From Escherichia coli O127:H6 str. E2348/69 (GTDB lineage: Bacteria > Pseudomonadota > Gammaproteobacteria > Enterobacterales > Enterobacteriaceae): a stretch of DNA of 64,000 nucleotides. Shown here piece after piece: positions 42,580-43,230 of this stretch. The notes below the pieces were generated by a model that had not been told where the DNA came from, did not search any database, and saw nothing but the letters and a program-made list of their open reading frames with translations. Position numbers and translations under genes: made by a program. Numbering within the stretch: position 1 is the stretch's first letter; the number at the start of each line of letters is the position of its first letter. The DNA lies in assembly GCF_000026545.1 (NCBI RefSeq), contig NC_011601.1. One strand, written 5' to 3'.

Positions 42580-43230
42580 ATGAATAAACTTCCCGACCAT
42601 CTTCCGCGGCGGTATATCATCGAAGCTATCCATTTATGGGATGCGGGAGAAACTCATCAGTTCCAGCCTGCACGGTTGTATTAGATTGAATATCATGGCC
42701 GACGTTACCCCTCGAAGGCGATTGCTGGCATCGCAGCGACATTGATGACGGGGACGCAATTTACCCCTGCGGATTTCACCGGCGGAATAAAATCTAAATG
42801 CGTCAAACTACTCATAGAGCAGGGATTTCATATTCATCAGGATAAAGCCGCTGCGGCTCCCATAGCCGACGTTCTGTTCCCGGATGAGTTGCCGTCGCAG
42901 GAGACCTACGTTGAAGGTGCGGCGATAAAGGTGACAGTAAACCGCTATGAACGCGATAAAAAGGTCCGAGATAAAGCGGTCGAATATCATGGATGCCAGT
43001 GCAACGTATGCGGCGTTGATCTGGTGAAGATCTATGGTGATATTGCTGAAGGCTTTATCCATATGCATCACCTGGTGCCGCTTTCAGCCATTAAAGAGGA
43101 TTACCAGCTGGATCCAGTTAATGATTTGCTGCCTGTGTGTCCTAATTGCCATGCGATGTTGCACCGACGCAAACCACCGTTTACGCCGGAGGAGTTAAAA
43201 GCGTTGATGGATGCGAATAAATCAAATTAA
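42580..43230 (+). pseudogene. HNH endonuclease gene interrupted by an in-frame amber (TAG) codon at 42682-42684
   Basis: ATG at 42580 opens a frame of 34 codons, then TAG, then the same frame continues into the track ORF 42742..43230 containing an HNH motif (HMHHLVPL...CPNCHAMLH). Confidence 0.55.

Follow-up and report, generated by a model that had tools for sequence, protein, structure and literature searches.

A lineage-specific nonsense pseudogene of a ScoMcrA_N-HNH endonuclease in Escherichia coli O127:H6 E2348/69

We studied a stretch of 64,000 nucleotides from the chromosome of E. coli O127:H6 strain E2348/69 (contig NC_011601.1; hereafter the window), in which a reading frame for an HNH endonuclease is interrupted by a single in-frame TAG. 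Is this a gene inactivated by a point mutation, two separate genes, or a shortened gene that still gives a functional product? Translation of positions 42580-43233 showed that the frame opened by the ATG at 42580 runs for 34 codons (MNKLPDHLPRRYIIEAIHLWDAGETHQFQPARLY), meets the TAG at 42682-42684 and, beyond it, stays open in phase for 181 further codons (IEYHGRRYPSKAIAG...KSN) up to the TAA at 43228-43230. The translation and the ORF list agreed in this with an earlier note on this DNA, which had described the same 34-codon frame, stop and continuation. The list presented a short ORF of 34 aa (42580-42684, positive strand) and a residual ORF of 162 aa (42742-43230, positive strand) that begins with the TTG at 42742 and has the ATG at 42745 as its codon 2. 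The whole region, 42580-43230 in the positive strand, amounts to 216 codons plus the TAA and is broken at codon 35. A Shine-Dalgarno-like AAGGA (42567-42571, positive strand) was located 8 nt before the native ATG, and the anti-SD duplex predicted for this start, -6.0 kcal/mol, was among the best 7.6% of the 20-mers sampled across the window. A promoter scan of 42380-43330 gave no match to the sigma-70 consensus.

Public annotation already contains the stop, but not in a consistent way. In NZ_CP059840.2, an E2348/69 chromosome with 100% identity to the region, RefSeq lists H4J01_RS21410 as "HNH endonuclease", a pseudogene with "internal stop", and its 651 bases have bounds identical to 42580-43230. 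In the other two of the three E2348/69-lineage records (NZ_LT827011.1 and NZ_LT903847.1; they correspond to "E2348/69 variety 2" and to a construct, "EPEC1", derived from E2348/69), the sequence is identical, and PGAP calls a 181-aa CDS, WP_286086248.1 (42685-43230, positive strand), starting at ATT 42685, the codon directly after the TAG. Identical sequence is treated by RefSeq as a pseudogene in one record and as a 181-aa "HNH endonuclease" in two.

Homology to a single protein family was found to run across the stop. A profile built from residues 1-92 gave a match to residues 4-93 of ScoMcrA (PDB 5ZMM) with E=4.4e-8, in an alignment that covered positions 6-88, across the stop position; the phmmer alignment to the same structure joined query residues 24-87, which lie on both sides of it. 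A database search with an intact ortholog (see below) returned 2,631 homologs and, among the matches listed, most were proteins of 205-230 aa carrying Pfam PF26345 (ScoMcrA_N) together with HNH. Our family alignment comprised 33 homologs, with identity down to 43%; nearly all were 205-230 aa long and aligned from residue 1, and A16, F28 and Y34, upstream of the stop, were invariant in them. Since homology to one protein family crosses the stop, the frame shared by both sides is not a matter of chance. Two separate native genes were rejected, because the homologs are single proteins and conserved residues flank the stop on both sides. The upstream 34 codons, which the earlier note had allowed might be unrelated to the HNH-containing ORF, are the conserved N-terminus of the same family, and the ORF at 42742-43230 represents three quarters of the gene, its C-terminal part, and is no native gene by itself.

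Other E. coli presented an uninterrupted 216-codon gene at the same site. These intact orthologs (WP_001596460.1, WP_021571039.1 and WP_001037969.1, all 216 aa) lie, like the E2348/69 copy, between an SBD-HNH gene and nanS, in a gene of 651 bases; unlike them, the E2348/69 copy has TAG at codon 35 and does not encode a 216-aa protein. DNA alignment showed GAG at codon 35 in three of the intact loci (L002, L003 and L006) versus TAG in E2348/69. Glu35 was present in all seven of the translated intact E. coli alleles sampled, and the 33 aligned family members have either E or D at this residue, next to the invariant Tyr34. The alignment and the allele table thus indicate that a single G-to-T transversion at 42682 turned Glu35 (GAG) into an amber codon (TAG, 42682-42684, positive strand), i.e., the TAG stands in place of a sense codon. 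The earlier proposal of a point-inactivated restriction-type nuclease was supported by this GAG, by the "internal stop" of RefSeq and by the conservation of the N-terminus in the family.

A 71-mer centred on the TAG was used to follow the spread of the stop. The region was present in 1,234 of 5,426 complete genomes, and full-length matches of 100% occurred in only three of these, all of them E2348/69 or derived from it; the commonest other class of match differed by exactly one base, and a fourth record in the band of 99% or higher was a partial match. The TAG is restricted to the E2348/69 lineage. The same TAG was found in five assemblies of other public samples (ERZ28626451, ERZ761544, ERZ761554, SRR19671046 and SRR23557177); one of the five has a single-base difference at another site of the gene. 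A "repaired" 216-aa allele, with Glu35 and Val129 (see below), did not occur in a protein collection of about 15 billion entries. These data also bear on the reading that the stop arose in sequencing or assembly and that the real strain has an intact gene. Single-base differences are indeed a kind of error found in assemblies, but the same base appears in three separately deposited genomes of the lineage and in the five assemblies from other samples or runs, including the one that differs elsewhere. We rejected this explanation, which is hardly credible for a TAG reproduced in independent public read and metagenome assemblies.

From its N-terminus, the intact 216-aa protein comprises a head domain, a linker predicted to be disordered and a nuclease domain of the HNH zinc-finger type. 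The ScoMcrA_N head domain spans residues 1-90 (42580-42849, positive strand), and its AlphaFold model consists of a helix (10-22), a hairpin (34-38/41-44), two further helices (45-57 and 73-80) and a strand (84-87); modelled alone, the domain was compact, with a pLDDT of 87 and a pTM of 0.81. The stop coincides with the beginning of the first beta strand, and the 34-residue peptide therefore cannot form the head domain. Residues 92-121 (42853-42942, positive strand) correspond to the predicted disordered linker, which had a pLDDT below 50 in the full-length model and was variable in the alignment. The HNH nuclease core, residues 138-198 (42991-43173, positive strand), was delimited by Pfam HNH and by alignment to EcoKMcrA (6ghc), and presents the motifs C141-x2-C144, H163/H164 and C187-P-N-C190-H191. 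The translation of the window contains all nine of the residues C141, C144, H161, H163, H164, C187, C190, H191 and H195, which are invariant in the 33 homologs.

The HNH content that had been read in the downstream ORF was confirmed by profile searches: Pfam HNH (PF01844) matched at residues 141-197 with E=4e-4, and the PADLOC mREase_IV models matched with E=7e-6 and 1.5e-5. EcoKMcrA (6GHC) and TagI (6GHS, also a Foldseek match) align with the HNH core, including the C-x2-C ... HH ... C-P-N-C-H pattern. Both are modification-dependent HNH enzymes and, like the E. coli protein, are small, single-chain and located in defence regions; they differ in that their N-terminal domains are unrelated to the head domain, and the likeness is limited to about 75 nuclease residues (E=4e-4 and 3e-3, respectively). 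The HNH domain is therefore related to those of known Type IV enzymes, and none of the domains known to read DNA modification (SRA, SBD or the N-terminal domain of EcoKMcrA) was found in the protein. We infer that the intact enzyme would be a modification-dependent (Type IV-like) restriction nuclease, probably a solitary one, with the head domain directing it to DNA.

As regards family membership, the window copy has the head domain, both C-x2-C pairs and the conserved histidines of the ScoMcrA_N-HNH family (PF26345 + PF01844), and its frame, with TAG at codon 35, is not the uninterrupted one of about 205-230 codons. With the frame broken there, it is a pseudogene copy of this family and not a functional member. 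One of the nearest known systems is the Type IV restriction endonuclease ScoMcrA (Streptomyces coelicolor; PDB 5ZMM), which depends on phosphorothioate and 5mC/5hmC and to which the protein is related through the head and HNH domains. ScoMcrA has 561 aa and carries SBD and SRA readers between these two domains, whereas the E. coli protein has neither; the SBD that is fused in ScoMcrA resides, in the E. coli locus, on a separate, divergently transcribed HNH gene. In the description of PMC6224610, the ScoMcrA head is a small domain with a flexible attachment and no known role, and it therefore gives no prediction of specificity. In the literature searched, we found no characterised member of the two-domain family and nothing on PF26345 or ScoMcrA_N beyond the ScoMcrA structure paper. 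The protein also resembles the EcoWI-type SBD-HNH enzymes (NF045808) in having a small N-terminal DNA-directed domain and a C-terminal HNH, and their genes are immediate neighbours of ScoMcrA_N-HNH genes in E. coli and Klebsiella aerogenes. Unlike that family, the pseudogene product has no SBD, and membership was rejected at 16.5 bits versus a cut-off of 180. Likewise, a "YPSKA" motif considered as the sulfur pocket of ScoMcrA was discarded, since the match falls in the ScoMcrA head domain (residues 29-93).

The open frame downstream of the stop led us to consider a functional restart, which the earlier note had offered as its alternative. Translation would resume at ATT 42685, TTG 42742 or ATG 42745 and give a shortened nuclease of 161-181 aa that keeps the HNH domain and lacks an intact head domain. 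Apart from A129V, the downstream frame is undamaged; the PGAP call of WP_286086248.1 from ATT 42685 points in the same direction, as does the exact 161-aa truncated product, which gene callers reported on 40 contigs. These annotated CDSs are, however, automatic calls and not proof of expression. The anti-SD pairing energies were -2.8 kcal/mol for ATT 42685 and -1.5 kcal/mol for both TTG 42742 and ATG 42745, values close to the window background (-2.2 ± 2.4 kcal/mol) and far from that of the native start. ATG 42745 lies 60 nt past the stop, and a product starting at this codon, Met56, would be missing the first helix, both hairpin strands (34-38 and 41-44) and the greater part of helix 45-57; in the alignment of 33 homologs, no protein begins at this position. 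Without Shine-Dalgarno pairing and with most of the head domain missing, reinitiation at 42742-42747 found little to sustain it, and we judge a functional restart product, from any of the three codons, to be quite improbable.

Partial read-through of the TAG, by a suppressor tRNA or by near-cognate decoding, would instead yield some full-length enzyme. Nothing specific speaks for it, as the integrity of the rest of the gene is equally expected of a recent pseudogene. The tRNA scan found no suppressor tRNA within the 64-kb window, the sole tRNA of which is tRNA-Leu(CAA), and no recoding signal was evident around TAT-TAG-ATT. Moreover, the codon lost to the TAG is an ordinary one, conserved as Glu/Asp, and the change is confined to one lineage, a pattern of mutation and not of programmed recoding. 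Read-through is accordingly very improbable in our estimation, and less likely than a functional restart product.

Very probably, then, the locus is a recently inactivated gene in which the E2348/69 G-to-T change makes Glu35 an amber codon and from which no functional enzyme is produced. In the sequence of events that we propose, the intact form, present in many other E. coli and across Proteobacteria, would encode a 216-aa stand-alone nuclease with a ScoMcrA-type head, a disordered linker some 30 residues long and, at the C-terminus, an HNH domain of beta-beta-alpha-metal type with a four-cysteine zinc site. A single transversion in the E2348/69 lineage would have converted Glu35 (GAG) to amber (TAG), and translation from the native ATG would end after 34 residues, before the head folds and far before the nuclease domain, leaving the E2348/69 allele most likely with no active product. 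It is an ordinary lineage-specific nonsense pseudogene, already flagged by RefSeq.

Comparison with the closest intact allele, that of FDAARGOS_144 (WP_001037969.1, locus L006; 98.6% DNA identity), provided an indication of age. The two alleles differ by seven synonymous changes and one non-synonymous change, plus the stop, and no frameshifts or further stops were found in the E2348/69 allele relative to this one. The proteins are identical except for E35* and A129V; the latter, the only other amino-acid difference in the list, results from GCC to GTC (position 42965, positive strand), and position 129 is Ala in at least 90% of the homologs. With so few differences, the inactivation is recent. 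Pairwise dN/dS values among the E. coli alleles ranged from 0.04 to 0.35, which indicates that the gene is constrained where it is intact.

The pseudogene is located at the far end of an island (15258-43230) adjoining the tRNA-Leu(CAA) gene leuX. The order is integrase, AbiTii, type I R-M (hsdRSM), DUF4942, a McrB/McrC-like pair, SBD-HNH, the pseudogene and nanS-nanM-nanC-fimB; the island also carries a recombinase, a DEAD-box helicase and a second small HNH protein. The McrB-like (684 aa) and McrC-like (436 aa) proteins both scored far under the NCBIfam cut-offs for canonical McrB and McrC. The immediate neighbour of the pseudogene, in the negative strand (41571-42443), is an intact gene for an SBD-HNH phosphorothioated-DNA restriction endonuclease (WP_000168585.1; NF045808, 437 bits versus a cut-off of 180), which matches the SBD of ScoMcrA at residues 97-232. 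The head (4-93) and the SBD (97-232) of ScoMcrA map to two divergent HNH genes separated by 136 bp.

The same divergent pair was found in Klebsiella aerogenes (L013:4952-6636), beside a Mrr_N-HNH gene and a type I R-M system, and a second E. coli island carries the head-HNH and SBD-HNH genes at a distance of about 4 kb from each other. In other genomes the head-HNH gene occurs on its own, in a neighbourhood that varies and is often rich in defence genes: its 5-6 kb flanks were free of called SBD genes in Shewanella, Pantoea, a Sulfurimonadaceae MAG and one metagenome contig. An obligate pairing with the SBD-HNH gene was not supported, given these four flanks. In Citrobacter freundii (L018:6001-12651 and L019), a 56%-identical homolog is situated about 2.5 kb from a dnd-type cluster that comprises a cysteine desulfurase-like Aminotran_5 gene, a dnd-associated protein and an SMC/DndD-like ATPase, indicating that some family members coexist with a phosphorothioate modification system.

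Two observations concern the region immediately downstream of the pseudogene. The nanS gene (43238-44218, negative strand) reads without interruption as an ORF of 326 aa and contains a SASA domain. Both in this strain and in several further genomes, RefSeq flags just an internal segment of the gene as a partial sialate O-acetylesterase pseudogene; this flag looks like an annotation artefact and not a real disruption. Besides, a 29-codon ORF (WP_374758120.1; 43230-43319, positive strand) overlaps the stop codon of the HNH gene through TAATG and runs antisense to the 3' end of nanS; the equivalent region is "protein YthB" in K-12-like strains. Translation of this ORF could depend on that of the HNH gene.

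Other alleles of the gene in E. coli may be disabled as well. A common one, WP_001037966.1 (found, e.g., in O26:H11; L009:2140-2180 and L010), has TAC, Tyr, in place of Cys187. This residue is a zinc-site cysteine of C-P-N-C-H, invariant in the 33 family members and encoded by TGT in E2348/69 (43138-43140). An exact 48-mer with TAC at codon 187 was matched by 653 complete genomes; the full-length gene is carried by 1,238, so that about half have this codon, and these Tyr187 "intact" genes may be inactive too. Matches to any part of the gene were present in 2,756 genomes, 1,238 of them with at least 80% of the gene and about 1,500 E. coli genomes with a partial match only. In the two partial-match genomes examined, only the last 109 nt were left (L007:4063-4171 and L008:4001-4109, equivalent to 43125-43233 in the window) and were annotated as an N-terminally missing pseudogene. 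A 41-mer with the Tyr187 codon was found in 1,317 genomes and, in a sample of 12 rows, about half of the matches began at the stub boundary, suggesting that many stubs carry the Tyr187 codon.

The E2348/69 stop could on this basis be one case of recurrent, independent inactivation of the ScoMcrA_N-HNH gene in E. coli, a proposal that we consider rather unlikely. Relaxed selection, together with hitch-hiking of one common haplotype, explains the same counts equally well. If the losses did occur under selection, the active enzyme would be costly in many backgrounds, which would point to the head domain as a reader of a DNA feature often carried by E. coli or its mobile elements.

The significance of the pseudogene is small, and it exposes an inconsistency in RefSeq annotation. 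The EPEC reference strain E2348/69 is without one small nuclease of its leuX defence island, a loss that could have a slight effect on the strain's acceptance of modified DNA from phages or plasmids. For learning the role of the head domain, a question separate from the pseudogene, the intact alleles of E. coli would be a convenient starting point.
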